From: Candidatus Omnitrophota bacterium | GTDB lineage: Bacteria > Omnitrophota > Gorgyraeia > Zapsychrales > JAHFFX01 | Direction: 5' to 3' | Length of the DNA: 64,000 nucleotides | Assembly (NCBI GenBank): GCA_023247725.1 | Contig: JAHFFW010000002.1 | Location: 160-64,159 of the forward strand | Shown: positions 12,217 to 55,203 of the stretch, one piece after another | How positions within the stretch are numbered: position 1 is the first letter of the stretch | Layout: the number at the start of each line of letters is the position of its first letter | Position numbers and translations under genes: made by a program | Notes under the pieces: model-generated | What the model was told of the DNA's origin: nothing | Databases searched by the model: none | The model's input: only the letters and a program-made list of their open reading frames with translations

Positions 12217-12227
12217 TGATTCGAATA

Positions 12228-13040: not shown

Positions 13041-13081
13041 GGGACCATTTTCACGTGGAAATTATACAGTGAATTTTCTTA

Positions 13082-14889: not shown

Positions 14890-14892
14890 AGA

Positions 14893-15099: not shown

Positions 15100-15117
15100 A
15101 TTATGGCTAATCAGTCA

Positions 15118-16952: not shown

Positions 16953-17108
16953 TTCATTGATTATTGGGTATTTATTCACAGTTTAAAATTCTATAAATTT
17001 TTAAACTACAATGGGTTGAGAACTTATAAATTTTATCAACAGCCCTTAATACTATGACTACGATTTTAAATTTAAAAATAGAAACCATTTTGGTGGAAAA
17101 CAAAAATT
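16953..17108. promoter_or_regulatory. AT-rich dnaA-dnaN spacer, possible DNA-unwinding element
   Basis: About 80% AT; contains a DnaA-box-like ttatcaaca. Confidence 0.3.
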
Positions 17109-18197: not shown

Positions 18198-18236
18198 AGT
18201 TGCTTTTGCATTTTTTCCAGATACAATAATCCATTC

Positions 18237-20995
<2,759 letters not shown>

Positions 20996-21028
20996 GTTTA
21001 AAGGCGAGCGAAGAAAGGCCTGCAGTTT

Positions 21029-32588: not shown

Positions 32589-33593
32589 ATGATGCGATTA
32601 TCGCAAAAAGCCCAAACCATTCTCGAATACACCCTCCTCATCACTCTGGTTATCCTTGGGATTGTTGTCATGTCCCGCTATGTGATTTATTCCGTCAATG
32701 CCCATTTGAAGTCTTGGGACGATGCCGCCGAGGATGCAACGACTGATCCCATGATGAACTTTGATGATATAACCAGCCTGCCAGGTGTTGCCTGCACTTG
32801 CGGCAATTTTCTTCCGCAGGCCTGCGGTGTATCCACGTGTGCGCCGACCGAGATGTATTCTAAGAAATTTTGTACCCCCGCTGATTGCGGCTGTGTCAAT
32901 CCCGGTGATTGCGATCAATGTACAGCCGATCCTTCCTGCTGTACGAGAACGCCGAACGGAGGTTGTGGAGCTGGCGGTTGTGCCCCCACGGCTATTCTCA
33001 TGACCGTGACCTGCGGGACTAATCCGCCGTCTAATCAGTGTGAGGATTCGGAGACGTGTGGTCCTTTTAGCTGTCAGGGCCCGGTCCCTGCCAACGCAAC
33101 GCTTTGCCCAGGAGATAACACGGGTTTAACCAGCAATGACTTCAATAAAATTGTATCGGCATGCTCGGCGGCAAAATGCGAATACACCTGCGATGCCGGG
33201 TTCATCCTTGTTAATGGTGCGTGCGAGGAGGATACCGGCCCTTGCCCAGGGGGGCAAGTTCAATGTTGGTCTTGCAGCGCAGAGATTATTTTTAGCGAAG
33301 CGCCCAGCGGTTGTAGCGGTTTTAACGGTTGTGTGGGTAGAAACATCGTGGCGGTCATCGATCATATTTGCGCTGCCTGTCCAGCTCCTCCGACTTGTTC
33401 TTCTTGTGAAGGATTTTCGTTGGGTGGGGGATATATTGATGAAAATTTTGCTTGTTCGGCGGCCAGGACCGACGCTGAAACTCGCCCTTGTTCCGGGAGA
33501 AGTCAGCCGGTTCGGTGCGGATATGCCCAATATTCTGGAAATCCGGCTGATTGCATCTGCTCCTATACCTGTGAGAACTCCTGCGCTCGTTAA
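32589..33593 (+). CDS. Flp/TadE-like prepilin fused to a cysteine-rich extracellular domain
   Basis: 334 aa; N-terminal class-III-like prepilin signal (KAQTILEYTLLITLVILGIVVM) followed by about 250 aa containing about 50 Cys (CTCGNF..CGVSTC..CGCVNPGDCDQC..). Confidence 0.6.
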   Translation: MMRLSQKAQTILEYTLLITLVILGIVVMSRYVIYSVNAHLKSWDDAAEDATTDPMMNFDDITSLPGVACTCGNFLPQACGVSTCAPTEMYSKKFCTPADCGCVNPGDCDQCTADPSCCTRTPNGGCGAGGCAPTAILMTVTCGTNPPSNQCEDSETCGPFSCQGPVPANATLCPGDNTGLTSNDFNKIVSACSAAKCEYTCDAGFILVNGACEEDTGPCPGGQVQCWSCSAEIIFSEAPSGCSGFNGCVGRNIVAVIDHICAACPAPPTCSSCEGFSLGGGYIDENFACSAARTDAETRPCSGRSQPVRCGYAQYSGNPADCICSYTCENSCAR

Positions 33594-33685: not shown

Positions 33686-34696
33686 ATGTTAAGAAGGGAG
33701 AGAGTTTTGAATAAAGCCAAACAATGTTTAGGATTGTTGGTTCCTTTGGTATTTACGCTTGCCACCTTGTCTGGATGTGATCAGATTTCGTCATTCTTCA
33801 ATAAGTCCGGTTCCAAATCTAACCTCAATAAAGAAAAAATTTCTTCAACTCCCGTCGAGTCTACACCGGTCCCTTCCCTGGCACCTCCTTCCATAGATTC
33901 TAATGTGCCTTTACCTGCTGATGTGCTGGCCAGGGTGGGCAATTGGACCCTCACGGCTAAAGATTTTGAAGAGCGCCTTAAGGGGCTTAAAGAAGTCTTC
34001 CCTGACTTCGATGTGAATGTTCCGGAAAATAAGCGGTTGATTTTAGAAGAATTGGTTCGCCAACAATTGCTAGTCAGGGAAGCGGAAGAGACTGGAGCTG
34101 CCAAAAAGAAGGAGATTGTGGATGCCGTGGAAGAATTTCGCCGGTCCCTCCTGGTTCGGGACGCGGCCACGAAATTGACCGAAGGCATCAAGGTGACGGA
34201 TTTGGAGGCGCAGGAATTTTATAACCAAAATAAAGACAACCCGGCATTAACCGAACCGGCGGAATATCATTTGCGCGAAATTGTGATGTCCACTCAGTCG
34301 GGCGCTAAAGAAGTTCTCGTCGATCTTTTAAAAGGAGCGGATTTTGCGGAGATGGCCAAGGCTCGCTCCAAAGGAAAAACGGCAGCCAATGGCGGGGACT
34401 TGGGGACGGTGAAGACTTTCGAATTTCCGCAAATGGAGGCGGCGGTGGCCTCGTTGGAAGCGGGAGATATTAGCAATGTATTCAAAGGGCCCAGCGGAGA
34501 TTACTACATCGTTAAGGTGGAAGAAAAAAAGGGTGGCAAACAAAAGGATTTTGCTGCCGTCAAAGAGGACATCATTACCTTTTTAACTCAATCCAAGCAG
34601 CAATCTGTGATTGAAAGCCACCTGAAAGAATTGCAACAAAAATATGGGGCAAAGATCAATGAAAATTTCTTGTCCGATAAAGGAGTAAAACCATGA
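33686..34696 (+). CDS. parvulin-type peptidyl-prolyl isomerase lipoprotein (SurA/PrsA-like)
   Basis: 336 aa; lipobox LATLSGC; PpiC domain (GGDLGTVKTFEFPQMEAAVASLEAGDISNVFKGPSGDYYIV). Confidence 0.75.
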   Translation: MLRRERVLNKAKQCLGLLVPLVFTLATLSGCDQISSFFNKSGSKSNLNKEKISSTPVESTPVPSLAPPSIDSNVPLPADVLARVGNWTLTAKDFEERLKGLKEVFPDFDVNVPENKRLILEELVRQQLLVREAEETGAAKKKEIVDAVEEFRRSLLVRDAATKLTEGIKVTDLEAQEFYNQNKDNPALTEPAEYHLREIVMSTQSGAKEVLVDLLKGADFAEMAKARSKGKTAANGGDLGTVKTFEFPQMEAAVASLEAGDISNVFKGPSGDYYIVKVEEKKGGKQKDFAAVKEDIITFLTQSKQQSVIESHLKELQQKYGAKINENFLSDKGVKP

Positions 34697-35514
34697 ATAC
34701 CGATGATAAGAAAAAACTAGGTGTGATTATCCTTGCCGTGAGTGCCGGTATTGTGGCGTCGATTTTGGCCGGTAATTACATCAAGCAAAGTGTTCAGGAA
34801 CAAACGGCCTCGCTCGCCAAGGAATACGAAAAAAAGCGCAAGCAAGAAATGGATGCCCTGAGGCAGGATTACGAGCGTTTTAAAATGGAGACCGCTCAAG
34901 CCATTGCCCAGCAGCAGCAATTGGCGGCGACCTTCAGAGAGCAAGCGGGAAGCGCAAAAAATCAGCAAGTGATTACGCCCGCCCAACAGGCCTCGCTGGC
35001 GATTAAGACTCCGCCGGGAAAAAGAGCCATTACGATCCAATTGGATTCTTTATCGGCAGTTGGAGGAATGATTGGCGCTGGCGATTTTGTGGATGTCTTG
35101 GCTCATTTGAATGTGCCCAATCCTGCGGAGCCCGCAGCTAAAGAAACCGTGACCGTGATGGTTTTCCAAAATATTGAAGTTTTGGCCGTTGGAACAAGCC
35201 TGCAGTCGGTTCCCGGCCAGTATCCCTTGCAGCAACAGTCGACTAATCTGAATGTCACCTTCGCGGTTGAACCAGAGGAAACTGGTTTACTGACCTTCGC
35301 CCAAAGAAATGGAAAACTGCAGTTAGTTCTGCGCTCGCCCCAAGAATTGGAAACGCGCATGCTGCAGGCCGCGAATTGGCAAACGCTCTCCGATTATGTT
35401 TTAGAAAAACAGGGAACCGATATCAGCGCTCCTAAATCCAAGGCTTTGATCGAACCCGCTGCCGAGGAGGTCAAACCCTTTATTCAAATCTTCCGGGGAG
35501 GAAAGTCATTATAA
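34693..35514 (+). CDS. cpaB: Flp pilus assembly protein CpaB/RcpC
   Basis: 273 aa; N-terminal TM, then SAF/RcpC-like beta domain (GDFVDVLAHL...VFQNIEVLAVG); start overlaps the PPIase stop. Confidence 0.75.
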   Translation: MNTDDKKKLGVIILAVSAGIVASILAGNYIKQSVQEQTASLAKEYEKKRKQEMDALRQDYERFKMETAQAIAQQQQLAATFREQAGSAKNQQVITPAQQASLAIKTPPGKRAITIQLDSLSAVGGMIGAGDFVDVLAHLNVPNPAEPAAKETVTVMVFQNIEVLAVGTSLQSVPGQYPLQQQSTNLNVTFAVEPEETGLLTFAQRNGKLQLVLRSPQELETRMLQAANWQTLSDYVLEKQGTDISAPKSKALIEPAAEEVKPFIQIFRGGKSL

Positions 35515-35526: not shown

Positions 35527-37839
35527 ATGGTCATGGAAATTATGCTTAGACAGTCGAGAAGAATCGTTTTTTGCATCAGCCTCTTAGCATTATCTGCATG
35601 GTTGGTTTCTTCATCCGCATTGTTTGCTCAAGATCCCATCGATCCAGGACCGACGCCGGAAAAATCGGTGGAGCAAACCGGCGGCATGGTCGCTAGAGAT
35701 GTCAAGAACAACGAAGATATTTACATCATACGGGGCGATTTGGAAGCCATTAAGGTTTATGCCTTGACGAGGATCTCGGTTACGAATCCGGAAATTGCCG
35801 ACATAGCCAACGTCGATAGCAATCAGGTTTTAATGTTGGCTAAAAAGTCGGGACGAACGACCCTGATTATTTGGGATGAGTATGGAAAGCGTTCGATTCT
35901 TATTCATGTGTTTGAAGAAGATTTGGACTTGGTTTATCGTCGTTTAAGTCAGATGTTAGAAACCCTGCGCATTGAAGGGGTGAGTTTGGAAATTAATAAA
36001 ACCGAAGGCAAGGTCGTAGCGACGGGTCGGATTCCTCCCGAAAAAAAGGCGGAATTTGAAAAGGCTCTGGATCCTTATTCGGCCAGTGTTCTCAATTTGG
36101 TTAAAACCTCGCCGGTGGATGATTTGATTCAAATTGATATCCAAATTGCGGAGTTAAATCAAACCCTCAGCAAATCGATCGGGATTGAATGGAATAGTGC
36201 CGTGACCTACGCGGAAAGAAACTTCGTAGCCAATGCGGCGCGAGATATTTTTAAAGTAGGGCCTTTAAGTCGTACAACTCAGATTATCGCCACGGTCAAT
36301 GCCTTAATTACGGAAGGCAAAGGTCGTATTCTTTCTAAGCCTAAACTCGTCGTGATTAATGGCAAGGAGGCGAGTTTCCAGGTCGGAGGGGAGATTCCGA
36401 TTTCCACAACCACGACGACATCCGGCGGCAACGTCCAGCAAAATATCGAATTTAAGGAATATGGCATCACCCTGACCGTTAAACCCACGATCCGCGACGG
36501 GAAAGTCGATGTGATTTTGACGGTGGAGGTCAGCGACATTGATGAGGCTAATGCGGTAGGACAAAATGTGGCGTTTACAACCCGCAATGCTCAAACCCAA
36601 ATCCTTTTGGATAATGGTCAGACGGTGGTTATTGCGGGTTTGATTAAGCAACAGGGAGGCGAGGAGATCAGAAAGGTTCCTTTCCTCGGCGACATTCCCA
36701 TTGTTGGGATGGTATTCCGTAAGCGTAGAACGCCCACCCTTAATCAGGACACGGAATTGGTTATTTCTTTAACGCCAACGATTATTCCCCAAAGAGAGTC
36801 CACCCGGAGTGTTGCCAAAAAGGTTGTTGAAACGCCAACAGAGGCGGGGCCAGGAAAACCAGAATTAATGGAAATCTCTCAAGGTTCTACCGAAACACCG
36901 GCCGAATCCACGGGAACGTCCGGTACCGTGAAAGAGAATACAGATGCGCCGTCGGCGAGCGTGGGAGAGACTCCCCCAAAAATGGAACCTTCTGTCCAGG
37001 CTCCGGCGCCTTCTGCACAAGTGACTCAACCCTCGACGGCAATGACCGAGCCTGCGCCGGAAAAGACCGCCCCGGTTGCTAATGAAAATGCTCCCGCGCT
37101 TGGGAAGATACAGGAGCCATCACCCGAAGGAGAGAAGGCTTCTGAGGTTGCCGCCGTCTCGGAAGAAGCCACCAAGGTTCCGGCCGAGATGGCTCCTTAC
37201 ATTCAGTCCATCCAGAAAAAAATTTCTGAATCCGTCGCTTATCCTTATGAAGCCAAAGAAAAAGGTTGGGAGGGGACGGTGAAATTGGCCTTGCATATTT
37301 TAAGAGATGGAACTTTAGCCGATGTCACGGTCAAGGAGTCATCTGGATATGAGATTTTTGATAATGATGCTTTGAATACAGCTCAAATTTTAGCTCCTTA
37401 TGCCGCTTTTCCGACGGGAATGAAGTTGGAAGAATTGATTGTCACGATTCCAATTGTTTACAGTCAGAAGGCGGCATTGCAAGAAGGAGTTTGCGAACCC
37501 AGCGTTCAAGTAGACGACAATGCCGCTGCAAGGGTTTTTCTTCCCGGTGGAATGGCTTATTCCGAGATGATCCAGAAGCGGCTTGCTGAGTCCATTGTTT
37601 ATCCAGAAGAGGCAAGGGAAAACGGCTGGGAAGGGACGGTCAAATTGACCCTGCAAATCCTTCGCGACGGAACCCTAGCCTATGCCTCCGTGAAAGAATC
37701 TTCCGGTTACCAGCTATTTGATGAATGCGCATTAAAGACAGCCAAAAGCCTGGCACCTTACTCTGAATTTCCTACCGAATCTGAACTTCAGGAAGTCAAT
37801 CTCACGGTTCCGATTGTCTACAGCCTCAAACATAATTAG
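35527..37839 (+). CDS. cpaC: Tad secretin RcpA/CpaC with C-terminal tandem TonB_C domains
   Basis: 770 aa; signal peptide; CpaC N-domain; secretin domain (…GKEASFQVGGEIPIS…VPFLGDIPIVGMVFRKRR…); Pro/Ala/Thr/Glu-rich linker; two TonB C-terminal-like domains (…YPYEAKEKGWEGTVKLALHILRDGTLADVTVKESSGYEIFDNDAL… and …YPEEARENGWEGTVKLTLQILRDGTLAYASVKESSGYQLFDECAL…). Confidence 0.8.
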   Translation: MVMEIMLRQSRRIVFCISLLALSAWLVSSSALFAQDPIDPGPTPEKSVEQTGGMVARDVKNNEDIYIIRGDLEAIKVYALTRISVTNPEIADIANVDSNQVLMLAKKSGRTTLIIWDEYGKRSILIHVFEEDLDLVYRRLSQMLETLRIEGVSLEINKTEGKVVATGRIPPEKKAEFEKALDPYSASVLNLVKTSPVDDLIQIDIQIAELNQTLSKSIGIEWNSAVTYAERNFVANAARDIFKVGPLSRTTQIIATVNALITEGKGRILSKPKLVVINGKEASFQVGGEIPISTTTTTSGGNVQQNIEFKEYGITLTVKPTIRDGKVDVILTVEVSDIDEANAVGQNVAFTTRNAQTQILLDNGQTVVIAGLIKQQGGEEIRKVPFLGDIPIVGMVFRKRRTPTLNQDTELVISLTPTIIPQRESTRSVAKKVVETPTEAGPGKPELMEISQGSTETPAESTGTSGTVKENTDAPSASVGETPPKMEPSVQAPAPSAQVTQPSTAMTEPAPEKTAPVANENAPALGKIQEPSPEGEKASEVAAVSEEATKVPAEMAPYIQSIQKKISESVAYPYEAKEKGWEGTVKLALHILRDGTLADVTVKESSGYEIFDNDALNTAQILAPYAAFPTGMKLEELIVTIPIVYSQKAALQEGVCEPSVQVDDNAAARVFLPGGMAYSEMIQKRLAESIVYPEEARENGWEGTVKLTLQILRDGTLAYASVKESSGYQLFDECALKTAKSLAPYSEFPTESELQEVNLTVPIVYSLKHN

Positions 37840-37863: not shown

Positions 37864-40029
37864 ATGGATTCTCGGACAATCACGATTTTTAGCAATAAGG
37901 GTGGTGTCGGTAAGACCTTTGTTACGGTTAATTTGGCTACGACCTTGGCGCTTAATGGAAAGCGCGTTTTCCTTTTGGACATGGATTTTCAGGCGGTCCA
38001 AGATATGGCGCGCATGCTTAATTTGGCCCCGCGTTATGCCGTCGTGGATATGCTGCGCGACGTCGAGGAATCGTCCGACCCGAACATCATCAAAAAATAT
38101 GTGATCTCTCATTCCAGTGGCTTGGATTTTTTGCCCGCCGTTATTCACACCAAGCAGATCGGCCACATCACTCCAGATAACATCAAACCGTTTTTAAAAA
38201 AAGCCGCTCAGGCCTACGATTATATCGTCATTGATGCAGGCAAGGCCTTTAGTGAGACCCTCATAACGGTCCTGGACTATTCCAACTTAATTTTTTTAGT
38301 CGCAACCCCCGATATCCTGGCGGTCTACCAGATCCGTTGGGCCATGGAGGTCTTACAAAGCCTGCACTTCCCTTTGAAGATGGTGAAACTTATTCTCAAT
38401 AGAGCCGAAAGTCGAGGTGGTGTGGCATGGCAGGAAGTGCGTTCAGCCTTGACTTGTGAAATCTTTTCTCGAATTCCGTCGGATGGAAGGGCCGTTGGGA
38501 TGGCGCTGAACCGCGGAATCCCTCTGGTGATCGACAGTCCCAAAAGTCTAGTGGCCGATTCCTTTAATGCTATGATCCGGGATTTGTCCAGGGACGGGAT
38601 GTTTGTTCAGGCAACGGAAGTTGCGAAGTTAAGGACGACGGAGGATTTGGTCAAACCCGGCGAGTTTTGGGAAAAATTTGGTGTTTCTTCCGGTGCAGCT
38701 AAGGCGGGAGTCTATGCCGGCTATTCGGCGGAAGAAGATGAAATTATAAAATTGAAGAAAAAGATACATGAAAAGCTCGTCGATCGGCTTGATATCAAGG
38801 ATCTTTCCGCCGAGGCATTGAGTAATCCCCAGCAATTTGCCAAGATTAAACAAAATGCGGAAAAAATTGTCAGCAACCTTCTCACCGAAGAGGCTGGGGC
38901 CATGATTTCCTCTCATGAAGAACGTGCCCGGATGGTCAAAGAGGTGGTTAATGAAGCCTTGGGGTTGGGCGCGATCGAAGAATTCCTCGCTGATCCGGAA
39001 GTCACCGATATCATGGTCAATAATAAGGAAGAGATTTACATCGAGAAAAATGGCAAATTGATTTTAACGAATAAACGGTTTGTTTCTGAAACTCAAGTGA
39101 GAACTGTTATTGATCGGATTGTCGCGCCTTTAGGTCGACGGATTGATGAATCAGTTCCCATGGTGGATGCGCGTCTGCCCGATGGATCTCGGATCAATGC
39201 GGTGATCCGGCCTATTTCCCTCAACGGCCCGATGATCACCATCCGTAAATTCAGCACTGAGCGTTTGACCGTTGAAGATCTCCTTCTCAAATATAAAAGT
39301 TTGTCGGAACCGATGGGAGAGTTTTTAAATGCTTGTGTATTAGGGCGCAAGAACATCATTGTTTCGGGAGGAACTGGCGCGGGGAAAACCACGCTTTTAA
39401 ATGTTATTTCGTTGTTTATTCCTGATGGAGAAAGAATTATTACAATCGAAGATGCTGCGGAGCTTAGGCTTAAGGCCCATAGTCATTGGGGCCGCATGGA
39501 ATCCCGGGTGCCCAATGTAGAGGGGAAAGGCGCGATTACCATTCGCGATTTATTTATTAATTGCTTGAGAATGCGCCCGGATCGCATCATCATCGGTGAA
39601 TGCCGCGGGGCTGAGGTCATGGACATGCTTCAAGCCATGAACACGGGTCACGACGGCTCCTTAACGACCGTACACGCGAACTCAACTAGAGATGTATTGG
39701 TGCGCTTGTGTTCTATGATGCTTTTATCCGGCATTGATCTCCCTTTACGGGCTATGCACGAGATGATTGCCTCGGCTATTCACCTCATTGTCCATGTGGC
39801 AAGATTCTCCGATGGGACTCGTAAAATTACTGGTATTACCGAAGTGGCTGGCTTGGCAGAAGGGTATCAGCTCAATCTTAAGGATGTTTTTACTTTTGAC
39901 CGCCAAGGGATTGACAACGAAGGGCGCGTGATCGGTCAATATAGGGCCACGGGTTATATCCCCACTGGTTATCAGGATCTCGTAGCGCGCGGAATTCCCC
40001 TCGACAAAGCCATTTTTACTCCCAGATAA
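37864..40029 (+). CDS. fused TadZ/CpaE-like (MinD/ParA ATPase) - TadA/CpaF (secretion ATPase) protein
   Basis: 721 aa; N-terminal deviant Walker A SNKGGVGKTF plus MinD-like fold; C-terminal CpaF N-domain and core (GGTGAGKTTLLN, ...IIIGECRGAEVMDMLQAMNTGHDGSLTTVHANS). Confidence 0.8.
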   Translation: MDSRTITIFSNKGGVGKTFVTVNLATTLALNGKRVFLLDMDFQAVQDMARMLNLAPRYAVVDMLRDVEESSDPNIIKKYVISHSSGLDFLPAVIHTKQIGHITPDNIKPFLKKAAQAYDYIVIDAGKAFSETLITVLDYSNLIFLVATPDILAVYQIRWAMEVLQSLHFPLKMVKLILNRAESRGGVAWQEVRSALTCEIFSRIPSDGRAVGMALNRGIPLVIDSPKSLVADSFNAMIRDLSRDGMFVQATEVAKLRTTEDLVKPGEFWEKFGVSSGAAKAGVYAGYSAEEDEIIKLKKKIHEKLVDRLDIKDLSAEALSNPQQFAKIKQNAEKIVSNLLTEEAGAMISSHEERARMVKEVVNEALGLGAIEEFLADPEVTDIMVNNKEEIYIEKNGKLILTNKRFVSETQVRTVIDRIVAPLGRRIDESVPMVDARLPDGSRINAVIRPISLNGPMITIRKFSTERLTVEDLLLKYKSLSEPMGEFLNACVLGRKNIIVSGGTGAGKTTLLNVISLFIPDGERIITIEDAAELRLKAHSHWGRMESRVPNVEGKGAITIRDLFINCLRMRPDRIIIGECRGAEVMDMLQAMNTGHDGSLTTVHANSTRDVLVRLCSMMLLSGIDLPLRAMHEMIASAIHLIVHVARFSDGTRKITGITEVAGLAEGYQLNLKDVFTFDRQGIDNEGRVIGQYRATGYIPTGYQDLVARGIPLDKAIFTPR

Positions 40030-40032
40030 GTC

Positions 40033-40386
40033 TTGGCTATCCTCAATCTTACCCGCAACACCATCCTCAGTACAAAAGTAACGATTGCTCAGACAACCTC
40101 TCAACGGATGCAAGGGCTGCTTGGTCGTAAATCCATGGGGCTTGATGAGGCCTTAGTCATTTTCCACTGCCAAGCCATCCACATGTTTTTTATGAATTTT
40201 TCAATCGACGTGATTTTTGTGGGTAAGGAAAATCGGGTGGTTGGATTGGTGGAAAATATTCAGCCGTTTCATCTAAGCCCTATTTTTTGGCGTGCCGATA
40301 AAGCCATCGAAGTAGCCCCGGGCACAATCAAGTCGTCTTTAACCTCTCTTTTTGATCTTCTCGTCATCGAAGGTCAAGCCAACTAA
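40033..40386 (+). CDS. DUF192 family protein
   Basis: 117 aa; starts 4 nt after the ATPase gene. Confidence 0.55.
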   Translation: MAILNLTRNTILSTKVTIAQTTSQRMQGLLGRKSMGLDEALVIFHCQAIHMFFMNFSIDVIFVGKENRVVGLVENIQPFHLSPIFWRADKAIEVAPGTIKSSLTSLFDLLVIEGQAN

Positions 40387-40406: not shown

Positions 40407-40619
40407 TTATTCGTTTGATTCCGCTTCATCGACCCAACGGTGACAGTATCGGCAAATAATAGATTCCACAAGAATATCCATCCCGCAGAAGATGCATTTT
40501 TTTTTGTCGGTTGGTTGGTAATCAATATCCAAAAGATCCTCAATTAAAAATTGGTTGCAAAAAGGACAGATGGACGGCCTAGAATCGAGGGATTCGAAAC
40601 AGTAGGGGCATCGTTTCAT
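40407..40619 (-). CDS. double zinc-ribbon protein
   Basis: 70 aa with CPYC...CPFC...CIFC...CRYC. Confidence 0.5.
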   Translation of the reverse strand: MKRCPYCFESLDSRPSICPFCNQFLIEDLLDIDYQPTDKKKCIFCGMDILVESIICRYCHRWVDEAESNE

Positions 40620-40782: not shown

Positions 40783-42720
40783 ATGGGCGTTGTCCATAAA
40801 CTAAGACAAGAGGTGGTTGATTTTATTATCACCTTAAAAAAAGAAAACCCTTCACACAGTTGCCGGGGGCTCGTCGGCCTAATCCAGCAAAGATTTCAAA
40901 TTGAGGTTTCCAAATCATCGGTTAATGCAGTCATTAAAGGGGCCCAATTGAGCAGTTCTATTGGAAGAAAATTGGGCTCCGGAAAAAAGCAAAATAAATT
41001 TAAAATTCCAATAGAAAAAAAACAACAACTCTTTTCAATTGATGTCAAAAAAATACCATCGTCTCCATCAGAATTCCCTGTTTCATTCCCTTCCCCCACC
41101 CCAGACATAAAAGAAGTTACCCATTTAAGTGCAGAAACCGTTAATGAAGGAATTTTTTTAAAAGCACCAGCATCAGAGCAAGAAATTGAAAAATACGTTG
41201 CTAAAACCGACGCTCCTTCAAAAAAAGCAAAACAAGGAGCAGCAATTACAAAAGGTGTTAAGACTCAAAAAGAATTTTTTCCGACGGAGAAGAAGGATGG
41301 AAAAGGGTTCACTGCGATTGAACAGATTGAACGCTATGAGAGTCCAATGCCGACCGCTTTGCCAGATAATAATAATTCGTCGGTCAGAATGGCCGAACCT
41401 TTATTCGACTGCATGGGAAGCATTTTTTTGCGAGCGGCAGAATGGGAATTAGGCGTCTCATCGATTTGGGGACCCTTATTGAGTAAATTTATTCCACGCA
41501 TCAATACGGATATCCACACTTTAAGTAGTTTGCTTCTTTATTCCAGATTATTTGGTATTGAAGAGCCAGATAAAATTGACAATTATCCGCAATCAGAGAT
41601 TTGCTCCCTTTTAGGCATAAAGAACGGGATTGATGCTCATGACTTCTTTATAGTTTTAAAAGAGATTGAAAACAATGCTTCCCTGAGATTAGGACTGACT
41701 ATGGAACGAATACAACTTTTTTCAGAAGTGAATTTTTTGAAGCTCCAATTAGAGGACGGAAGAGAAGTCTTTTTGGATGCTCAGATGCATTCCATTTGGA
41801 ATCAGGATATACCGCCTCAATTTTGTTGCCCTTCAAATAAAATAATGTCCATTCTAATGAGCAAAATAATTGATAATGTCCAATCTGTAATAATTCAAAA
41901 AATTCCTGAGGACGCCAATTCATCCCATTTTTCGGATTTTATACAAGGTTTTGAAAATTTCCCCGGAAAACGAATTAAGACAATTATCCTGTATGATTCC
42001 CAAAAGCGCGAATTTGCCAATTTTCCTTATTTGCTGAACAAAAGAAGACATTTTATCATTGGATTGTGGCCATGGCAAAAAGAGTTTGCCCAATTGTCGC
42101 AAAGTTTGGAAGAAAAATCGCCGATAACAATGATGAATGAAAAATTCTTTTATGATGTGAAGGAATTAAATTTGATCACGCAAATGGGGCAACCTTTGTC
42201 CAGCTTGCGAGTATTTTGTTTGTATTCGACTCAATCTGATTCCCCTTTCCTCGCCGTTGCCACCAATATTCTCGACGATAAAAATAAGCCGGAAAAAATC
42301 ATATCGGAATATTGCAGCCGCTGGCCAAATTGGCAATGGGAACCGGAGTTGTTTATTCCTCGCGCGATCTCGGCTGAGCCCTCTCTCAATCTTGAAGAGG
42401 AATTAAACCTGAAATCTTCGCAGCAATATGAACAGTCGAACTTAAAGGCAATTCAACAGCTATTGCTTAACGATTTGAATACACACTGCAAAAAATATTT
42501 TTTCCCTCCTTATTACGCCGATTTGGGATTCGATGAACTTAATCGCCGATTTTATCAAATAAAAGGTTCTTTACAGCAAAGTCAAAACCAATTGAAAATT
42601 AAACTGATTCCTCCGAAGAGCTTTCCATATCATCAGGATCTCATGTGGGCAGCTAAAAGGCTCAATGAAAGTGCGATCGTGAGCCCAGAGGGGTTAGCTC
42701 TAACCATCTCAGTCAATTGA
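40783..42720 (+). CDS. hypothetical 645-aa protein with N-terminal transposase-like HTH
   Basis: N-terminus (LRQEVVDFIITLKKENPSHSCRGLVGLIQQRFQIEVSKSSVNAVIK) resembles transposase/homeodomain-like HTH; the remainder is unassignable; AT-rich and unrelated to the surrounding Tad genes. Confidence 0.4.
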   Translation: MGVVHKLRQEVVDFIITLKKENPSHSCRGLVGLIQQRFQIEVSKSSVNAVIKGAQLSSSIGRKLGSGKKQNKFKIPIEKKQQLFSIDVKKIPSSPSEFPVSFPSPTPDIKEVTHLSAETVNEGIFLKAPASEQEIEKYVAKTDAPSKKAKQGAAITKGVKTQKEFFPTEKKDGKGFTAIEQIERYESPMPTALPDNNNSSVRMAEPLFDCMGSIFLRAAEWELGVSSIWGPLLSKFIPRINTDIHTLSSLLLYSRLFGIEEPDKIDNYPQSEICSLLGIKNGIDAHDFFIVLKEIENNASLRLGLTMERIQLFSEVNFLKLQLEDGREVFLDAQMHSIWNQDIPPQFCCPSNKIMSILMSKIIDNVQSVIIQKIPEDANSSHFSDFIQGFENFPGKRIKTIILYDSQKREFANFPYLLNKRRHFIIGLWPWQKEFAQLSQSLEEKSPITMMNEKFFYDVKELNLITQMGQPLSSLRVFCLYSTQSDSPFLAVATNILDDKNKPEKIISEYCSRWPNWQWEPELFIPRAISAEPSLNLEEELNLKSSQQYEQSNLKAIQQLLLNDLNTHCKKYFFPPYYADLGFDELNRRFYQIKGSLQQSQNQLKIKLIPPKSFPYHQDLMWAAKRLNESAIVSPEGLALTISVN

Positions 42721-43238
42721 ACCCGCAATTTTTGTCCGCTCTACCTTTTTCTGACAATATTCTCGGTTTTGTTTATTTTTCTGCACAATTTTTCCTGTCC
42801 ATAAAAGATTGTCTCTTGACATTCAAAAGAGGCCCATGTTATATTTATAGAGCCATTTAAAACCAAATAATTTTATTAGAAAAAGACTACATATGAGAGT
42901 ACTTTTGCATATCACCATTTGTATCCGGGCAATTTTAAGACAAAAAATGCGGGTTTCAGATCTTCAAGGCATCATCCTTGAAGATTTTTTATTTTCAGGA
43001 AAGACAAAAATGGCTTTGACACCGTAAGGTGTTTTACCCGGGTCGGCGCGATTGGCCAAGGATCGTTATATGGACGAGATCGGCGAAAAGCGAGCCTCCG
43101 GTACCGACCATCGAAAGATGATCGGTATATATACAGCCCAGTCGTGGAGTTCACCCTCCTCTTGGTTTGGAGGAGGAAAGGGCTAAATTTATCTTCCGAA
43201 CACGGTAAGGAGAGGTTCATGATGGGGCAAAAATGCGA

Positions 43239-43382
43239 ATGAACAAAAAAGGTCAAAACATAATAGAATATGCCCTCGTCGCAGCCTTAGTCTCAGCGGC
43301 TATGATTGCCATGAGTACCTACGTGTTTCGTTCGTTTCAAGCAAACCAGAAGATGATTGAGGATGAATTCCAGAACAATTGA
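43239..43382 (+). CDS. flp: Flp-family pilin (47 aa)
   Basis: MNKKGQNIIEYALVAALVSAAMIAM...; G/xxxxEY class III prepilin motif; below the ORF-track cut-off. Confidence 0.6.
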   Translation: MNKKGQNIIEYALVAALVSAAMIAMSTYVFRSFQANQKMIEDEFQNN

Positions 43383-43438
43383 GGGGCAGCTTGCATCTGC
43401 CACTCGTCATTTTAAAGGTTTAGTAAGGAGGAACCATA

Positions 43439-43624
43439 ATGTTGAAAAACAAAAAAGGTCAAAGCACCTTGGAGTACATTATTTTGGTTACAGCGGTGAT
43501 TGCGATCATCATAGTCTTTTTAGGGCCATTCGGTATTTTCCGGCCGAAGCTGAATCAGGTCTTGGAAGACACGTCGAATTCGATGCTCAATATGTCAAAT
43601 CGACTTATGAATTCTCGCCGCTAG
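43439..43624 (+). CDS. flp: Flp-family pilin
   Basis: MLKNKKGQSTLEYIILVTAVIAIIIVFLG; strong RBS taaggagg. Confidence 0.7.
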   Translation: MLKNKKGQSTLEYIILVTAVIAIIIVFLGPFGIFRPKLNQVLEDTSNSMLNMSNRLMNSRR

Positions 43625-43667
43625 ATCGCAATTTTTAACTGAGGATTATTTACGGAGGTGACAATAA

Positions 43668-44015
43668 ATGTTTAGAAAATTGATGCGAATTAAAAAAGGA
43701 CAGACGACCGCCGAATATGCGCTGCTGATCGCATTGGTTGTGGCGGCGATTATTGCCATGCAGACATATGCCCAACGGACCTTGCAAGGCAGGATCCGGG
43801 ATGCTTCACAGTATCTCGTTAATGGGACTAGTGAGTTGGGAAACACGACTCATTATGAACCTTATTATCTGCAGACCGACTACGGCATCAGACGCAATGT
43901 GACGGACAATACCCGGTTAGGACTTAACCAGGTCGCCTATGACGAGGTTTCCAACCGCGTCAGGGAAACCTCGGGTTTTCAGTCGTCCGAGTATAGAGGG
44001 ATCAATGCCGAATAA
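43668..44015 (+). CDS. Flp/TadE-like pilin
   Basis: KKGQTTAEYALLIALVVAAIIAM prepilin motif; 115 aa. Confidence 0.6.
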   Translation: MFRKLMRIKKGQTTAEYALLIALVVAAIIAMQTYAQRTLQGRIRDASQYLVNGTSELGNTTHYEPYYLQTDYGIRRNVTDNTRLGLNQVAYDEVSNRVRETSGFQSSEYRGINAE

Positions 44016-44063
44016 TTCCCTGGTACGATTTTCAACTGTCATTTGTGATAAGGAGGACATTAA

Positions 44064-44390
44064 ATGTTCAAATACATAAGGAAGATTAAAGGGCAGAGCA
44101 CTCTCGAGTTCGCCATTTTAATCGTCATTATTATCGGTGCACTGTTGGCCATTCAGGTCTACATTAAAAGAGGGATTCAGGGCCGGTTGCGCAGTGCCGC
44201 CGATGATATCGGTGATCAATTCTCCCCAGGAAATACCAATTACACGAAAACCACCGTGACGAAAAGCAGCACAAAAGACACCTTCAAGAGCGGTGTTACC
44301 AACTCTTCGTTGCGGTCGGACGAAACAACCGATGTTTCTATGAATCAGAACATCAATAACACCGAGCAGGAATTCTGGGGTGGCAGGTAA
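44064..44390 (+). CDS. Flp/TadE-like pilin
   Basis: KIKGQSTLEFAILIVIIIGALLAI; 108 aa. Confidence 0.6.
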   Translation: MFKYIRKIKGQSTLEFAILIVIIIGALLAIQVYIKRGIQGRLRSAADDIGDQFSPGNTNYTKTTVTKSSTKDTFKSGVTNSSLRSDETTDVSMNQNINNTEQEFWGGR

Positions 44391-44411
44391 TCCGAATGGC
44401 GCAAATCCAAC

Positions 44412-44447
44412 ATGGCTTACTCGAGAGATTTTTCTCGGGTAAGCCAT
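44412..44447 (+). terminator. intra-operon hairpin (attenuator/terminator) after the fourth pilin gene
   Basis: atggcttactcgaga-gatttt-tctcgggtaagccat: a 15-bp stem with one mismatch. Confidence 0.4.
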
Positions 44448-44505
44448 GTTTCATTATGGCACATAATTTTTAGAGGACTAGGTAGGATTCAACTTTATCA
44501 AAAAA

Positions 44506-44864
44506 TGGACCCGGTCAAAAAAACCAAAAAGGCGCAAATCATCGGTGAATATGCCGTTACTTTTTTTGTCGTGACCAGCGTCATTATTGCCATGTCTGTT
44601 TTTATGATTCGGGTGTTTCAGGCCCGGATCTTCGATGCCCGGCGCTATATGGTCAACACCGTCAAGAGTGCTCCGCACATCGGAAAAATCAGATTAGAGT
44701 ATGAGCCCTATTATACGAATACCGACACCTTGACCGACCGGACAAGCTCGGAGGAAAAAAGTCTTCTCGAAGGAGGCCATACCGGAATCTTTCGAAAAGT
44801 TTGGGATGATCATACCGCGGCGCAAACCACGAGCGAACAGCGACCACCCAAAGATGCTGATTAA
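44506..44864 (+). CDS. Flp/TadE-like pilin
   Basis: Start moved to the Met of MDPVKKTKKAQIIGEYAVTFFVVTSVIIAM (listed ORF starts at 44412, inside the hairpin). Confidence 0.5.
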
Positions 44865-44891
44865 GTGTGATCAGTAAAGTGCGGTGGAACA

Positions 44892-45236
44892 ATGCGAAGA
44901 CATCTCCAGAAACAAAATCAAGCGCAAAACCTTTCCGAGTACGTCATTGTTCTCGGACTGGTGACGGCGGTGTTTTTTGCCCTAGGGCCACTTTTTCGCC
45001 GGGGCACTCAGGCAGTGATTAAACTAACGGCTGATCAGATCGGAAATCAGGTCAATGCAGAACAGCGAGTGACTCCTCGAAGCGGTTATTTGGAAAGTTT
45101 ATATACAACGACTCGATCTGCGCAAAATAATAATACGAACGAATCTTTAGGCGTTCTGACCTATACTTACGGTGAATCGGAAGGCGCCTCATCGGATTCG
45201 ATGGTGAATCTGGGTTTCACAAACAGGTACGAATGA
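44892..45236 (+). CDS. Flp/TadE-like pilin
   Basis: NQAQNLSEYVIVLGLVTAVFFAL; 114 aa. Confidence 0.5.
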   Translation: MRRHLQKQNQAQNLSEYVIVLGLVTAVFFALGPLFRRGTQAVIKLTADQIGNQVNAEQRVTPRSGYLESLYTTTRSAQNNNTNESLGVLTYTYGESEGASSDSMVNLGFTNRYE

Positions 45237-45544
45237 TGTTGAAAAATAAAGGTCAATCAACCCTGGAGTATGTCGTCCTTATCATTGTGGTCATGGGAGC
45301 GCTCATTGCGACGAGTGATTATGTGAAACGGGCCATTCAAGGACGTTGGAAAACCTCCGTCGACGATTTGGGGGACCAATACGATCCGGCGTACGCCAAC
45401 TCAACGATCACTCATGCAACAAACGGCACCTCCATTACCAGTATCACCACCATCAATGCGACTGGCGGTTTTTGGACGAAACGACTGGATTCCTCTAATA
45501 TGGAAGAGTCCAAGGCGGGATTTACGGCGATCGGGGCCTATTGA
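45233..45544 (+). CDS. Flp/TadE-like pilin
   Basis: MMLKNKGQSTLEYVVLIIVVMGALIA; start overlaps the previous stop. Confidence 0.6.
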   Translation: MMLKNKGQSTLEYVVLIIVVMGALIATSDYVKRAIQGRWKTSVDDLGDQYDPAYANSTITHATNGTSITSITTINATGGFWTKRLDSSNMEESKAGFTAIGAY

Positions 45545-47812: not shown

Positions 47813-50800
47813 TTGATTCGTTTTCTCCATAAGATTTTTGCAAAATTTTCCCGCACCAAACTCCGTTCCGGAGGGCAGGTGGCCGTGATCCTCATCTTGA
47901 TTACGGCCATTGCCCTTATTCTTTACGCCGTGGTTTTAAATCTGGGCCGAATTTCCACCCACAAAACCCTCGTCACGATGGCTTCTTCCGTCGGCACGAG
48001 TTTCCTTGCCTCGGAAATGGCCAGTTACGCCGAGTCCATGTACCAGGTTCAATTGGGCGGAGAAAAGGGAGCGAAGGATGATACCAGCGTTTGTGCCTTC
48101 ACCGGTTGGTTTGCTGCCCTCATCAAGGTTGCTCTGGTGGTTGCGGCCCTGGTCATCATCATTGTTACGCACGGATCAGGTTGGATGATTGCGATGGCCA
48201 TCATTGGTTTGGTCGTGGCTGGCATTGGTGCTTTTATGCAGATCGCCTTTATCCAGCCCGGGATCACCAAACTCTGGAACAAACAGATGGCCGATATGTC
48301 CGAGCCGGATAATTTTGTCGAGTCGGGCATTCGCACCGCCTTGCAGGCCGTCGTGACGGACAACGAATATGTCCCGGATGTCTATGATCAGGATCTGGAT
48401 CGAAAAACCTTTGCCGCCGACGGAGATAAGATCAACCGTTTTGCGTATTATTACACGGACCGGTTGAGCCGGCACCCTAGTAACGATCCCCGGGTTGCCC
48501 GCGAATTTCAAAAAGATTTGCGCCGGCTTTTGATCACCCTGTATCTTCCGGCCGATTGCTCCGATCCCAGCAACCCGAGTGCCCATCCCTGCTGTTTTGA
48601 TCCGGCCAATAATTGGAAAGTTTTGCCGTCCTATTGCAATCAATGCTGTGTCTTTAGTGATCTGGACACTCGGATTGATCCCAACACAGGAACCTTTGTC
48701 AAAGACGAATTTGGCCGGCGGCTTTACAAAAATACTGCCCGGCCGCAGTGTTGTTATGATCCTTTGAACGAGCCCGGCGGAGCCGGGACTCGCGCCGCCC
48801 CTGACACTTATTATTGCGGCACAACCGAGACTTGTGGAAACTTGAACGGAAATGACAAGGATCCTTTTAATGCCGCAACGCACCCGGTTGCGGCTGATCC
48901 CAATGATTTGCGTTGGATTTATGATCCTTTTTGGGAAGATGAACGCAATTTTAACGTTTTATCCATGCGAGCCCGGATCGGCCGTGATGATGAAACCAAG
49001 ACCTATCGATTACCCTTTAAAGGAGGATACGATTTTCCGCCGACGATGACGCCGGATGCCCTGGGTGTTTCTCCCGGAGATATGTGGCGATTAAATGATA
49101 CCAAATATTGGGACTTAACGACTCCCATTACGACGGAGCTTCCCGACCTTAATATATTTCCCTTTCTGTACCGGTTGACCTGGGGAGTGGACCTGCGCGA
49201 TCGAACGGTATACGATGCAGAAATGACGCCCAATACCTGGCCCGTTGGGGAGCCGGAGAAGTGCCATTGGTACAATATGAATCAGTTTTTCGGTGGGGCC
49301 CCGTGTCCGCCTCCTTACAGTGACGATCCTGTGACTATGAACACCGCCGACCTGAAGGGTAATCTTCCCCTCGGGTATCCAGTTCAATTGTATCTTTCCC
49401 TTGACCCGGCGACCCTGACTTATACCAAGGCCGGGTGGGTGGAGGGGCTCGGCCAGGGCATGTGTCAGGGCTCCGCATGCGTTTCCGACAAAATTCTGAA
49501 TATCCCTGGTCTAATAACCAAGAACGATGATTGCGCTTTGGATGATGCGGCTCACCGAGATTGTGACCACGCCCTCGATCCTCCCTGGGATTGCATTCAA
49601 TATTATTCCTGGAAGCCCGGCGCGGATCGGTATTGCAATTTGAACTGGCCATACTTTGCGCGATGCGCCAAATATGGAGTTTGTTGTTTTGGCGATAGCG
49701 AGGTCGAATGTGACTGCGGCGATGGCGTTGGCGGCCCTAATTCTGCCCTGGTGGCCAGTTGTTCCGACGAAGTGCCCGGGAAATTAAGGTATATCAGTGC
49801 GCCGGACCCAGGCGATGCGTGGGCAGACGATCCGTTGGATGAATTTATTTATGGTTCCGGTGAATTTATCGCCTGGGCCAAGGCCATCGTTGAGAGTTCT
49901 CCTCAGAATTTAAACGAGAATCTGAGAAATTGGTACAGCGAAGCGGCGACCTGGATTGAACCGGGGTGTCCTCGTCCGCCTTGTTCCAGCGGTTTTGTGA
50001 ACCAATTGAATCCCGGCGCCTTGTTTCGATGGATTGATCAGTTTGATTCTTATCAAAGGAATCTGGCATTTTGGTTGGGAATGGAACGCCGCGCCGGTAG
50101 CCGTGACGAACTAGGTGATCTTTGCAACGAGGTCTGGTGTGTTCCCGGAAATCCGGATGGCAGCGTCGGAGACCCCACCGGAAAGGAGCTGCGCGATATT
50201 TGTGATGCGGCCTCCTGCCCCGCGATTTGTCCCGGCGTCAAAAAAGGAGGAACCGAAACCCTTCTGGGAGTGATCACCGACTACGTCGGAGAAGGCGCTC
50301 CGCGGCCGACGGGAAGTTTTTTTGGCGTCGATGCAGAGGGACTTCCCGCAGTGGGCAATCCCACCGGCGTGATCAATTGTTTGAATTTCAATGCCCTCGA
50401 CGGCGATGTGATTGATCCTTATACGGATCCATTTACCGGCCAAATTTTTTCCGATGCCAATGATCCTGCCAATGCCCTTTCGGGAAATTCCGCTAAATTC
50501 GTGCGGGCCTGGGAAACCTGCGATGAGACGACCACACTCATGCTGCCGCGCTCCTTGCTTCATCCCGACCGGAATTTTGACACCAATGAATTCGTGCCTC
50601 CGCATCATCCGAAAAAAAGGGTTGATCTCGGAGTCAATGGCCAGTATAGCGATCCGGAGTTTTTCAAAAAATGTTTGGACGATTGCAATCCGGGACCAGG
50701 TAGTGGAGACTGGGGGAAGTATTGTGAGCCAGCGACTGAGTATGGGGAGCCCACGCCTTTCCGCGGACCAGCGAAGGCAACGATTCCCACGTACCCGGTC

Positions 50801-53369: not shown

Positions 53370-54227
53370 ATGATTTTTATTATTATCGGAATGGTCTTTG
53401 GCGCCGTCGGGGTTCTTTGTTATGCGGCGGTTCCATTATTTTTGAATACCACGGTCGCCATTAGTCAGAGGCGGTCCCAAACGTTTGCCAATAAAATGCA
53501 GCGCGTGGTGATGAAGTCCGAAATTCAACGGATGTCGCAATTTTATGTGATCGCGCCGGTTCTGTTTGGCGCTCTTGGCTATTTTGTTTTACCTCCGGAG
53601 TTGAGGGTGATCGGTGTCGTGGTCGGCATCGTGCTCGGGTTCGTGGGCCCGAGCATCTACATCAAATTTTTGGTCAGACGCCGGAAGGATAAATTTAATC
53701 ACCAGCTCATCGATGCCTTGATGATCATGTCAAGTTCCTTTCGCGGGGGATTGAGTTTGATTCAGGCCATGGAGGCCGTCGTCGAGGAAATGCCCGACCC
53801 CATCAGCCAGGAAATTGGCACAGTTCTGAACGAAAATAAAATGGGTGTGTCTCTGGAAGAGGCCTTGAACCATTTGTATGAACGCATCCCTTCCCCGGCC
53901 CTGCAACAAACGATCACGGCCATTCTTTTGGCGAGGGAAACCGGGGGTAATCTGCCGGTTATTTTTTCCCGCATCGTCAATTCCATCCGGGAACACAATA
54001 AAATTCAGCAAAATATTGACACCTTGACTTTACAGGGAAAGATTCAGGGCTCGGTGATGAGTCTGTTGCCCATTGGTTTCGCTTTTATCGTTTATTCAAC
54101 TAACCCGAAATTTTTTGACAGCATGGTGAATACAGAAATGGGACGCATGCTCCTTGTCTATGCGGCGTTTTCGGAGTGCATCGGCGCTTACTTGATCTGG
54201 AAGATCAGTACGTTTAAGGATTTTTAA
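53370..54227 (+). CDS. tadB: Flp pilus assembly inner-membrane protein TadB
   Basis: 285 aa; T2SS-F domain (…ALMIMSSSFRGGLSLIQAMEAV…); polytopic membrane protein. Confidence 0.8.
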   Translation: MIFIIIGMVFGAVGVLCYAAVPLFLNTTVAISQRRSQTFANKMQRVVMKSEIQRMSQFYVIAPVLFGALGYFVLPPELRVIGVVVGIVLGFVGPSIYIKFLVRRRKDKFNHQLIDALMIMSSSFRGGLSLIQAMEAVVEEMPDPISQEIGTVLNENKMGVSLEEALNHLYERIPSPALQQTITAILLARETGGNLPVIFSRIVNSIREHNKIQQNIDTLTLQGKIQGSVMSLLPIGFAFIVYSTNPKFFDSMVNTEMGRMLLVYAAFSECIGAYLIWKISTFKDF

Positions 54228-54306
54228 TGAGCGCATAAGTTACGCGACTGCTAAGGAGCGTAACTTAGCGCGCGAATTAATCCCCGAAGGGGATAATGAA
54301 AAGGGA

Positions 54307-55203
54307 TTGACTATGATAACCGTCATTTTAATGATGATCTTCTTGTCCGTTTTCAGCTTTATCCTGGGTGTGGCGCCGGTGGATTGGGAGAATCGGCCGC
54401 GGCTGCATTTGTTTGGCGAGGAAATGATCCAGGCGAAACGAAAGAAAAGTCCTTTAACGCCAGTTCTAAGTTTGACGCGCAAGATCGCGCTCATTAACAA
54501 ACCCTTCACCATCGGGCATCTGGGTAAGAGGATTAGCCGGGATCTGGCCATGGCCAGGGTCAACCTCACTCCAGAAGAGTTCTTCTTTATTAAGGAAGTG
54601 ACGATCATCGGAACATTGGCTTTATCTTACCCTTACGTTGAACCGGATATGCTGGTGTTCTGGGTTCTCATTGGAATCGCCTTCGGGTATATGTTGCCCG
54701 AGTTTTGGTTAAAGGGAAAGATCAAGAAGGTCAGAAATACCATTGTTAAGGAATTGCCGGATTCCATCGATCTTTTGACACTGTGCGTTAATGCGGGATT
54801 AGATTTCATGTTGGCCCTCAAGTGGGTCGTGGAAAAATCACCGCCTTCGGTCATGATCAGTGAATTCAACACACTGATGCAAGAAATTAATCTGGGCAAA
54901 ACCCGTCGAGACGCCATCCGAGATCTTGCCACCAAATATGAATTGCCAGATTTATCCACCTTGGCCCGCACCCTCATTCAGGCGGATAAAATGGGAACAT
55001 CCGTAGCGGAGGCCTTAAATATTCTTTCCGAAGATATGCGGCTGGCCCGATTCCGTCGAGGCGAGCAATTGGCCTTGAAGGCCCCCCTTAAGATGCTTGT
55101 GCCTTTGCTGCTTTTTATTTTCCCGGTTGTGGGAGTTCTCGTCGCCGGGCCCATCTTTCTCGATTTTATTCAAAATAATCCTCTGCAAGGTCTCGCGCAG
55201 TAA
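54307..55203 (+). CDS. tadC: Flp pilus assembly inner-membrane protein TadC
   Basis: 298 aa; T2SS-F domain (…LPDSIDLLTLCVNAGLDFMLALKWV…). Confidence 0.8.
   Translation: MTMITVILMMIFLSVFSFILGVAPVDWENRPRLHLFGEEMIQAKRKKSPLTPVLSLTRKIALINKPFTIGHLGKRISRDLAMARVNLTPEEFFFIKEVTIIGTLALSYPYVEPDMLVFWVLIGIAFGYMLPEFWLKGKIKKVRNTIVKELPDSIDLLTLCVNAGLDFMLALKWVVEKSPPSVMISEFNTLMQEINLGKTRRDAIRDLATKYELPDLSTLARTLIQADKMGTSVAEALNILSEDMRLARFRRGEQLALKAPLKMLVPLLLFIFPVVGVLVAGPIFLDFIQNNPLQGLAQ

Follow-up and report, generated by a model that had tools for sequence, protein, structure and literature searches.

What do two domains of the TonB type do at the C-terminal end of an outer-membrane secretin? The question is raised by a gene at 35527..37839 on the plus strand of a 64-kb stretch of DNA from a Candidatus Omnitrophota bacterium (contig JAHFFW010000002.1; this whole stretch is referred to below as the window). 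The open reading frame (ORF) has exactly these coordinates and encodes 770 amino acids (aa). Its product is the outer-membrane secretin of a complete Tad/Flp-type pilus locus in an Omnitrophota-like genome, and its tail consists of two bona fide TonB/TolA-type C-terminal domains. An earlier note, made from the letters alone, had described an RcpA/CpaC-type secretin with two TonB_C domains behind a spacer; Pfam, NCBIfam, AlphaFold2 and Foldseek agree with that description, and the spacer is disordered.

The protein begins with a putative signal peptide (residues 1-34, 35527..35628), read from the sequence with cleavage after ALFA; AlphaFold2 modelled a helix at residues 2-28. The periplasmic N-terminal domains (35752..36291) are a pilus-N/BON-like domain at residues 76-130 and an N-domain at residues 131-255, modelled with a predicted local distance difference test score (pLDDT) >90. 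The Pfam family T2SS-T3SS_pil_N (PF13629) was matched at residues 80-122 with E 2.9e-11. The secretin core occupies residues 256-424 (36292..36798) and was matched by Secretin (PF00263) at 259-420 with E 7.4e-44. It is followed by a linker of 128 aa (residues 425-552, 36799..37182) composed of 14% Pro, 14% Ala, 14% Glu, 12% Thr and 11% Ser. TonB_C domain 1 spans residues 553-648 (37183..37470) and TonB_C domain 2 residues 675-768 (37549..37830), with an inter-domain spacer between them (residues 649-674, 37471..37548) that is mostly disordered by composition and in the AlphaFold2 model. All of these features lie on the plus strand.

Both copies of the C-terminal domain were assigned by several independent routes. 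Pfam placed TonB_C (PF03544) in two stretches (E 5.8e-37) with TonB_2 as a weaker overlapping match, NCBIfam tonB_Cterm (TIGR01352) matched the secretin ORF twice (E 3e-32), and the boundaries given above were set with a family-specific hidden Markov model (HMM). The TonB_C motifs YP, EG-V, DG and the terminal PI-YS strand are all intact. A full-length AlphaFold2 model was built as a monomer on 73 sequences. The N-domains and the secretin barrel were confident, residues 424-548 were disordered with pLDDT <50, and the tail folded into two confident alpha-alpha-beta-beta-alpha-beta modules, the first with pLDDT of ∼90 and above. Foldseek searches of the PDB with the full model returned secretins of type II secretion (T2SS), type III secretion (T3SS), type IV pilus (T4P) and Tad systems for the first half, including RcpA-TadD (8odn), and TonB C-terminal domains as well. 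When the tandem TonB_C region was modelled alone, pLDDT was ∼90 per domain, the predicted TM-score (pTM) was 0.47 and the inter-domain segment was disordered. The top 26 PDB matches of this model were TonB C-terminal domains or TolA domain III throughout. The H. pylori TonB C-terminal domain (5lw8/6sly) ranked first with a target TM-score of 0.76 and 31% identity, and the globular domain of Neisseria TonB, in its complex with TbpA (9dc4), aligned at 1.5 Å. Across the TonB/TolA domains compared, target TM-scores were 0.73-0.76, root-mean-square deviations 1.5-2.3 Å and identities 26-31%; fold and motifs are shared, as is a low-complexity spacer before the domain. A sequence search of the PDB also assigned the tail to TonB C-terminal domains. 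The earlier note had named a domain scan that would place the repeats in an unrelated fold as the result to look for against its reading. No such fold was assigned, and Pfam, NCBIfam, the PDB sequence search and Foldseek all gave the TonB C-terminal domain.

A merger of adjacent secretin and TonB genes through a sequencing or assembly error was considered and can be discounted almost entirely. The same unbroken architecture occurs in >100 independent assemblies at 39-67% identity, and the linker lacks any N-terminal anchor sequence of TonB. That the continuous ORF arose in assembly is excluded: a protein 100% identical to this one is encoded in an independent assembly, and the fused frame is the same in >100 homologues.

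A search of sequence databases for the combined architecture, which the earlier note had proposed, found it across Omnitrophota homologues. In a database of 5.8 billion proteins, PF00263 and PF03544 were both present in 120/120 homologues among the matches listed. A single TonB_C was found in 100 of these 120 and two copies in the other 20, which are the closest relatives of the query. Named homologues are labelled 'TonB family protein [Candidatus Omnitrophota]' or 'pilus assembly protein CpaC'. Among GTDB species representatives, nearly all of the 79 best loci matched approximately residues 58-768, covering both halves of the protein, and among the secretin ORFs of the window and of 85 related loci, 83 carried TonB_C. 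When TonB_C domain 1 alone served as query, exhaustive HMMER searching gave 309 clusters at 50% identity (E <=1e-10); a secretin core was present in 100 of the best 150, and most of the others were short C-terminal fragments. Approximately ten proteins of 314-796 aa that lack a secretin and carry 3-5 tandem TonB_C copies were also among the closest TonB_C relatives (P0129, P0216, P0254, P0202, P0247, P0250, P0204, P0246, P0256, P0213).

The secretin-TonB_C fusion is the standard form of the secretin across Omnitrophota, and its named carriers are almost all Omnitrophota. The gene order MDH, peptidyl-prolyl isomerase (PPIase), CpaB, secretin-TonB_C, TadZ::TadA, DUF192, conserved ORF and pilins is kept in most loci. 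The same synteny was seen on contigs labelled Phycisphaerae, Elusimicrobia, Candidatus Elulimicrobium and 'uncultured Planctomycetales' (L005/L019, L065, L083, L068 and many others). These labels were not taken as a sign of wider distribution, because the contigs share the MDH-PPIase-CpaB-secretin-TadZA-DUF192 synteny at similar identities; they are probably submitter naming, placeholders or binning errors.

The two copies in the query share 64% identity across 87 aa, and blastn found no similarity between them at the DNA level. In the 20 two-copy proteins, mean identity was 62% between first domains and 59% between second domains, compared with 51% between first and second domains of different proteins. 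First domains therefore group with first domains and second with second, as expected from a single old duplication of which both copies have been maintained. A recent tandem duplication was rejected on the same clustering and on the blastn result. The earlier note had described a Pro/Ala/Glu-rich spacer followed by a TonB_C fold as occurring twice. The fold is indeed duplicated; the Pro/Ala/Glu spacer is single (425-552), and since the second spacer is 26 aa and not Pro-rich, the 'spacer plus domain' unit is not.

In one possible use of the domains, TonB_C of neighbouring secretin subunits would dimerise or oligomerise into a stabilising collar. TonB C-terminal fragments can crystallise as dimers, and 1u07 was among the Foldseek PDB matches of the tandem model. 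The tandem duplication and the 3-5-copy proteins without a secretin show a leaning to multivalency in the same direction. AlphaFold2, on the other hand, gave no confident packing of domain 1 on domain 2 (pTM 0.47), and in most of the family only one copy is present, at the end of a long, floppy tether. Such a collar is considered improbable. A packed pseudo-dimer of the two domains within one chain was likewise dropped as unsupported, given the pTM and the disordered spacer.

The secretin half places the protein beside Tad secretins. The GspD, PilQ, MshL and SctC models of NCBIfam aligned to the secretin core only and scored far under their cutoffs (149.5 bits against 351.35 for the GspD model TIGR02517; 126 against 284 for the PilQ model), and PF13629 stands in place of a GspD-type N0-N3 stack or AMIN domains. 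The pilus-N domain and secretin core are shared with RcpA of P. aeruginosa (8odn, Foldseek E 2e-12) and with CpaC of Caulobacter and rhizobia, as are the locus partners CpaB/RcpC, TadZ, TadA, TadB, TadC and Flp pilins. The difference lies in the tail, which is short and unstructured in RcpA and CpaC, whereas the Omnitrophota secretin has the 128-aa disordered linker and two TonB_C domains. The earlier note had stated that canonical Tad secretins are not known to carry this module, and the comparison supports it for plasmid and chromid records, two CpaC proteins and P. aeruginosa RcpA. None of 967 plasmid/chromid records with a secretin match covers >=80% of the query; all 25 of the 25 such matches listed stop by residue 513, ahead of the start of TonB_C at 553. 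Both of the canonical CpaC examples, at 466 and 474 aa, stop ∼55 aa past the secretin core.

The tail at the C-terminus of P. aeruginosa RcpA is a random coil, and its last four residues dock the pilotin TadD, an interaction essential for assembly (PMC10499894). No gene for a tetratricopeptide-repeat (TPR) or TadD-like protein was seen within ∼10-20 kb of the secretin gene, either in the window locus or in loci L001-L006 of three relatives. Unannotated upstream ORFs were considered as TadD-like pilotins and rejected, as the 334-aa ORF is Cys-rich and pilin-like and the 156-aa ORF has no recognisable features.

The reading with most support, which we put forward tentatively, is that TonB_C is a tethered, multivalent periplasmic docking module which takes the place of the pilotin-binding tail and anchors, targets or stabilises the secretin via a partner in the envelope. 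The C-terminus of the secretin would emerge in the periplasm just beneath the outer membrane, at the end where accessory proteins dock, and the short pilotin-binding tail would have been replaced there in the Omnitrophota lineage by the tethered TonB_C module. If 13-14 subunits per ring are assumed from RcpA, ∼13-28 docking domains would surround the periplasmic rim. The C-terminal domains of TonB and TolA bind their targets by beta-strand addition (PMC12204202). Because TonB_C binds in this way, the domains could act as docking sites ringed around the secretin rim, with each adding a strand of a candidate partner, which may be an outer-membrane protein, a lipoprotein or another part of the machine, for the purpose of targeting, assembly or anchoring. 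The hold would be static and due to avidity, with no force transduced from the proton gradient.

Conservation across 73 aligned family members is consistent with the docking module. The majority-residue frequency was 0.66-0.70 in TonB_C and 0.70 in the secretin core, and only 0.29 in the linker, which is gap-rich and hypervariable in the family, with lengths of 26-190 aa (median 47.5 in single-domain members). A TonB_C conserved like the secretin core behind a hypervariable linker fits a tethered binding domain under strong selection and not a fixed-length rod spanning the periplasm. The two independent beads of the structural model, with pTM 0.47 and a disordered spacer, fit multivalent docking. 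The fusion is retained across homologues and both copies of the ancient duplication have been maintained, which is further support for docking.

Several points weigh against this docking role. The one partner candidate tried, the conserved C-terminal strand of CpaB, fell away; the absence of a pilotin holds within ∼10-20 kb of the gene and not genome-wide; and the ring stoichiometry is carried over by analogy from RcpA. The CpaB strand, KPxIQIFRGG, was rejected as a docking peptide because the same kind of motif is present in a canonical CpaB whose secretin has no TonB_C; it is generic to CpaB proteins. The literature accounts for this C-terminal strand as the beta-hairpin that completes the sheet of the RcpA N-domain (PMC12307814), and the strand was therefore dropped as a candidate TonB_C partner. 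A Ton-box-like motif at the N-terminus of the secretin itself was also discarded, as residues 36-75 are poorly conserved (majority frequency 0.37).

The tether could instead lead to the cell wall, as the earlier note had also suggested, such that TonB_C would bind peptidoglycan and fix the secretin in the envelope, as AMIN domains do for PilQ. Its length, variable over 26-190 aa, could be enough to reach the layer of the wall. Older literature has reportedly proposed that the C-terminus of TonB binds peptidoglycan. No component that binds or cleaves the wall is known for Tad systems (PMC12307814). Against this, neither LysM, OmpA_C, SPOR nor AMIN was detected in the protein by Pfam or NCBIfam, and all structural matches are TonB/TolA, for which the documented mode is beta-strand addition to protein. 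A peptidoglycan anchor is considered unlikely. The AMIN domains of PilQ and the S-domain of GspD with its pilotin are, like TonB_C, extra secretin modules that anchor or target within the envelope, but TonB_C is of another fold, and AMIN lies at the opposite end of the protein.

Whether the domains act as they do in TonB was judged from the remainder of the protein and from its neighbours. TonB has an N-terminal inner-membrane helix with an SHLS motif that engages ExbBD (PMC12204202). In the Omnitrophota protein the module is instead carried, in two copies, on an outer-membrane protein without an inner-membrane anchor, SHLS motif, evident EP/KP rod or nearby exbBD/tolQR. No SHLS pattern is present in the secretin and residues 1-40 contain no His; the chain starts with a secretory signal peptide, after which comes the secretin. 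TonB also has a Pro-rich domain II that spans the periplasm; the linker here is disordered and 14% Pro, with only three EP dipeptides and one KP and a length of 26-190 aa across the family. Essentially all substantial ORFs of the window were scanned for families, and no genes for ExbB, ExbD, TolQ, TolR, canonical TonB or a TonB-dependent receptor were found in it; among the conserved neighbour families of the 85 related loci, none is of a motor type. The secretin-TonB_C protein is not a TonB energy transducer.

The earlier note had raised coupling of the secretin to an ExbBD/TolQR-like motor and had proposed looking for exbBD/tolQR neighbours. The neighbour check came out negative for the window and for conserved families of the 85 loci, and it speaks against the coupling together with the missing anchor and SHLS motif. 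In another form of the idea, TonB_C would bind a Ton-box-like strand of an inner-membrane protein tied to an ExbBD, TolQR or Poc-type motor, so that the proton gradient would act on gating, placement or pilus function. There is a precedent in P. aeruginosa, where PocAB-TonB3, homologues of ExbBD-TonB, are required for assembly and localisation of the type IV pilus and a contact between TonB3 and PilQ's N0 domain has been hypothesised (PMC5285504). Both systems link the TonB family to a pilus secretin system, and a covalent fusion of TonB_C to a secretin could be taken as a Rosetta-stone hint at contact of this kind. TonB3, however, is a separate, membrane-anchored and motor-associated protein for which contact with PilQ is a hypothesis only, while in Omnitrophota TonB_C is covalently on the secretin and no motor is evident. 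The protein lacks an N-terminal anchor, a His/SHLS motif and an evident EP/KP rod, genes of the MotA_ExbB or ExbD families are absent from the window and are not conserved neighbours in the 85 loci, and a defined force-transmitting span is unlikely because linker length is hypervariable. We regard motor coupling as having little chance of being correct.

The genes around the secretin make up a complete Tad-type locus, all on the plus strand unless stated. A 334-aa protein (32589-33593) starts like a pilin of the Flp/class-III type (KAQTILEYTLLITLV) and continues into a large Cys-rich domain; it has no Pfam match and has homologues in only 10 of the 85 loci. A role as minor pilin or tip adhesin is possible. 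The gene at 33686..34696, directly upstream of CpaB, was recognised by Pfam and NCBIfam as a SurA/PrsA-like PPIase; its lipobox (GCD) is conserved, and it is present in 71-72 of 85 loci. This lipoprotein could be a dedicated chaperone or a pilotin substitute for the secretin. The CpaB/RcpC alignment-ring protein (34693..35514; PF16976, and TIGR03177 above cutoff) is found in 81-82/85 loci. Downstream of the secretin, a 721-aa protein (37864..40029) was recognised by Pfam and NCBIfam as a TadZ-like ParA/MinD ATPase fused N-terminally to a TadA/CpaF secretion ATPase; the TadZ::TadA fusion is kept in relatives, at 719-722 aa in L001 and L003 and in 72-73 of 85 loci. The ATPase is followed by a DUF192 protein (40033..40386; Pfam, 69-70/85 loci) and by a small zinc-ribbon protein on the minus strand (40407-40619), seen in ∼30 loci. 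The next gene (40783-42720) encodes a 645-aa protein in a stretch of lower GC (0.39-0.42). It occupies the same position in ∼60 loci with homologues only ∼29% identical, and matched nothing in Pfam or PADLOC.

Seven pilin-like genes of the Flp/class-III-signal kind follow in a run (43233..45544), with KGQSTLEY-type N-termini and weak Class_IIIsignal and Flp_Fap matches. TadE/G-like proteins are encoded between this run and the platform proteins TadB (53370-54227) and TadC (54307-55203), both identified by T2SSF matches (53370..55203 together). A 1724-aa ORF at 47813-52987 also lies inside the Tad locus; it matched no Pfam family, and no homologue turned up among the 85 related loci, whose sequence reaches only ∼10 kb away from the secretin. 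The window showed no prepilin peptidase TadV. Just after TadC an ORF of the giant type, at least 2545 aa in the ORF list, begins at 56365 and runs off the end of the window at 64000. Peptidase_C39 (211-339) and hexapeptide-repeat/LbH matches were found in its first 1211 residues, and it fits the 'giant genes' reported beside the Omnitrophota secretion locus.

This neighbour offers TonB_C another possible ligand, in that the domains would capture a Ton-box-like strand on the downstream giant protein or on some other secreted or surface component, and so tether cargo. The locus lies directly upstream of the giant ORF (56365 to the window end, >=2545 aa), and the arrangement is conserved in Omnitrophota (West-Roberts 2023; 2026 preprint). 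Set against this, no Ton-box motif came up in the giant ORF, although no search aimed at one was made, and RcpA and TadBC are reported widely across Omnitrophota (Seymour et al.). A cargo tether is considered a slim prospect. Taken in its broader form, the proposal would be that TonB_C makes the secretin a force- or cargo-coupled part of a predatory apparatus, via a Ton-box-like strand, carried either by an inner-membrane protein linked to a motor or by the giant protein next door. This is quite unlikely. If true, the Tad machine would be physically linked to a giant protein or to the proton gradient, and the gene would be a natural Rosetta-stone fusion backing direct TonB-secretin contacts such as TonB3-PilQ.

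Upstream of the Tad locus, a chromosomal origin region at 11353-23482 has minus-strand parB, parA and yidC followed by plus-strand dnaA, dnaN, gyrB and gyrA. At 12-16 kb the sequence is AT-rich (GC 0.34-0.35), and GC skew changes sign there. The Tad locus lies ∼20 kb from the origin, and the synteny from gyrBA to Tad is conserved across the phylum. A 406-aa ORF with a weak HTH_23 match is located at 23868-25088 on the minus strand.

The locus itself has been reported before. A conserved secretion locus of gspD, gspE, gspF, rcpC, a Rotamase_2 PPIase and class III signal peptides was described upstream of Omnitrophota giant genes (West-Roberts et al. 2023, bioRxiv 10.1101/2023.11.21.568195). The order found here is the same, with Rotamase_2 PPIase, rcpC, gspD-like secretin, gspE-like ATPase, class III signal peptide genes, gspF-like genes and giant gene; that paper contains no occurrence of 'TonB', and the TonB_C module on the secretin is unmentioned there. 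Tad and RcpA were described in Omnitrophota by Seymour et al. 2023, in which TonB is also unmentioned. A 2026 preprint noted two 'TonB-domain' flanking genes near giant genes and did not recognise the secretin, and a 2025 survey of TonB/TolA evolution mentioned neither secretins nor Omnitrophota (PMC12204202). A search of the literature on secretins with TonB_C and on Omnitrophota secretins did not find a description of the fusion. The 'novel domain architecture' of the earlier note is thus overstated, since this is the standard Omnitrophota form and already in public databases; what holds is that no description was found in the papers searchable. The architecture is visible in databases and therefore not categorically new. 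The secretin-TonB_C protein is an undescribed (in papers searchable), lineage-wide form of a known kind of protein, and the annotation 'TonB family protein' mislabels Omnitrophota secretins.

Secretins have been studied as gates in the outer membrane for pili and secretion systems. Their targeting and anchoring differ between systems, and the TonB_C fusion is a phylum-wide solution in which a TonB-type domain occupies the end of the secretin that binds the pilotin in Pseudomonas. It shows TonB_C at work outside the TonB-ExbBD setting and gives indirect backing to the proposed contacts of the TonB family with pilus secretins. The locus adjoins giant genes and is part of the machinery believed to support a predatory or parasitic way of life in Omnitrophota; the identity of the TonB_C partner could reveal how the machine is put together or how it is coupled to the giant proteins.

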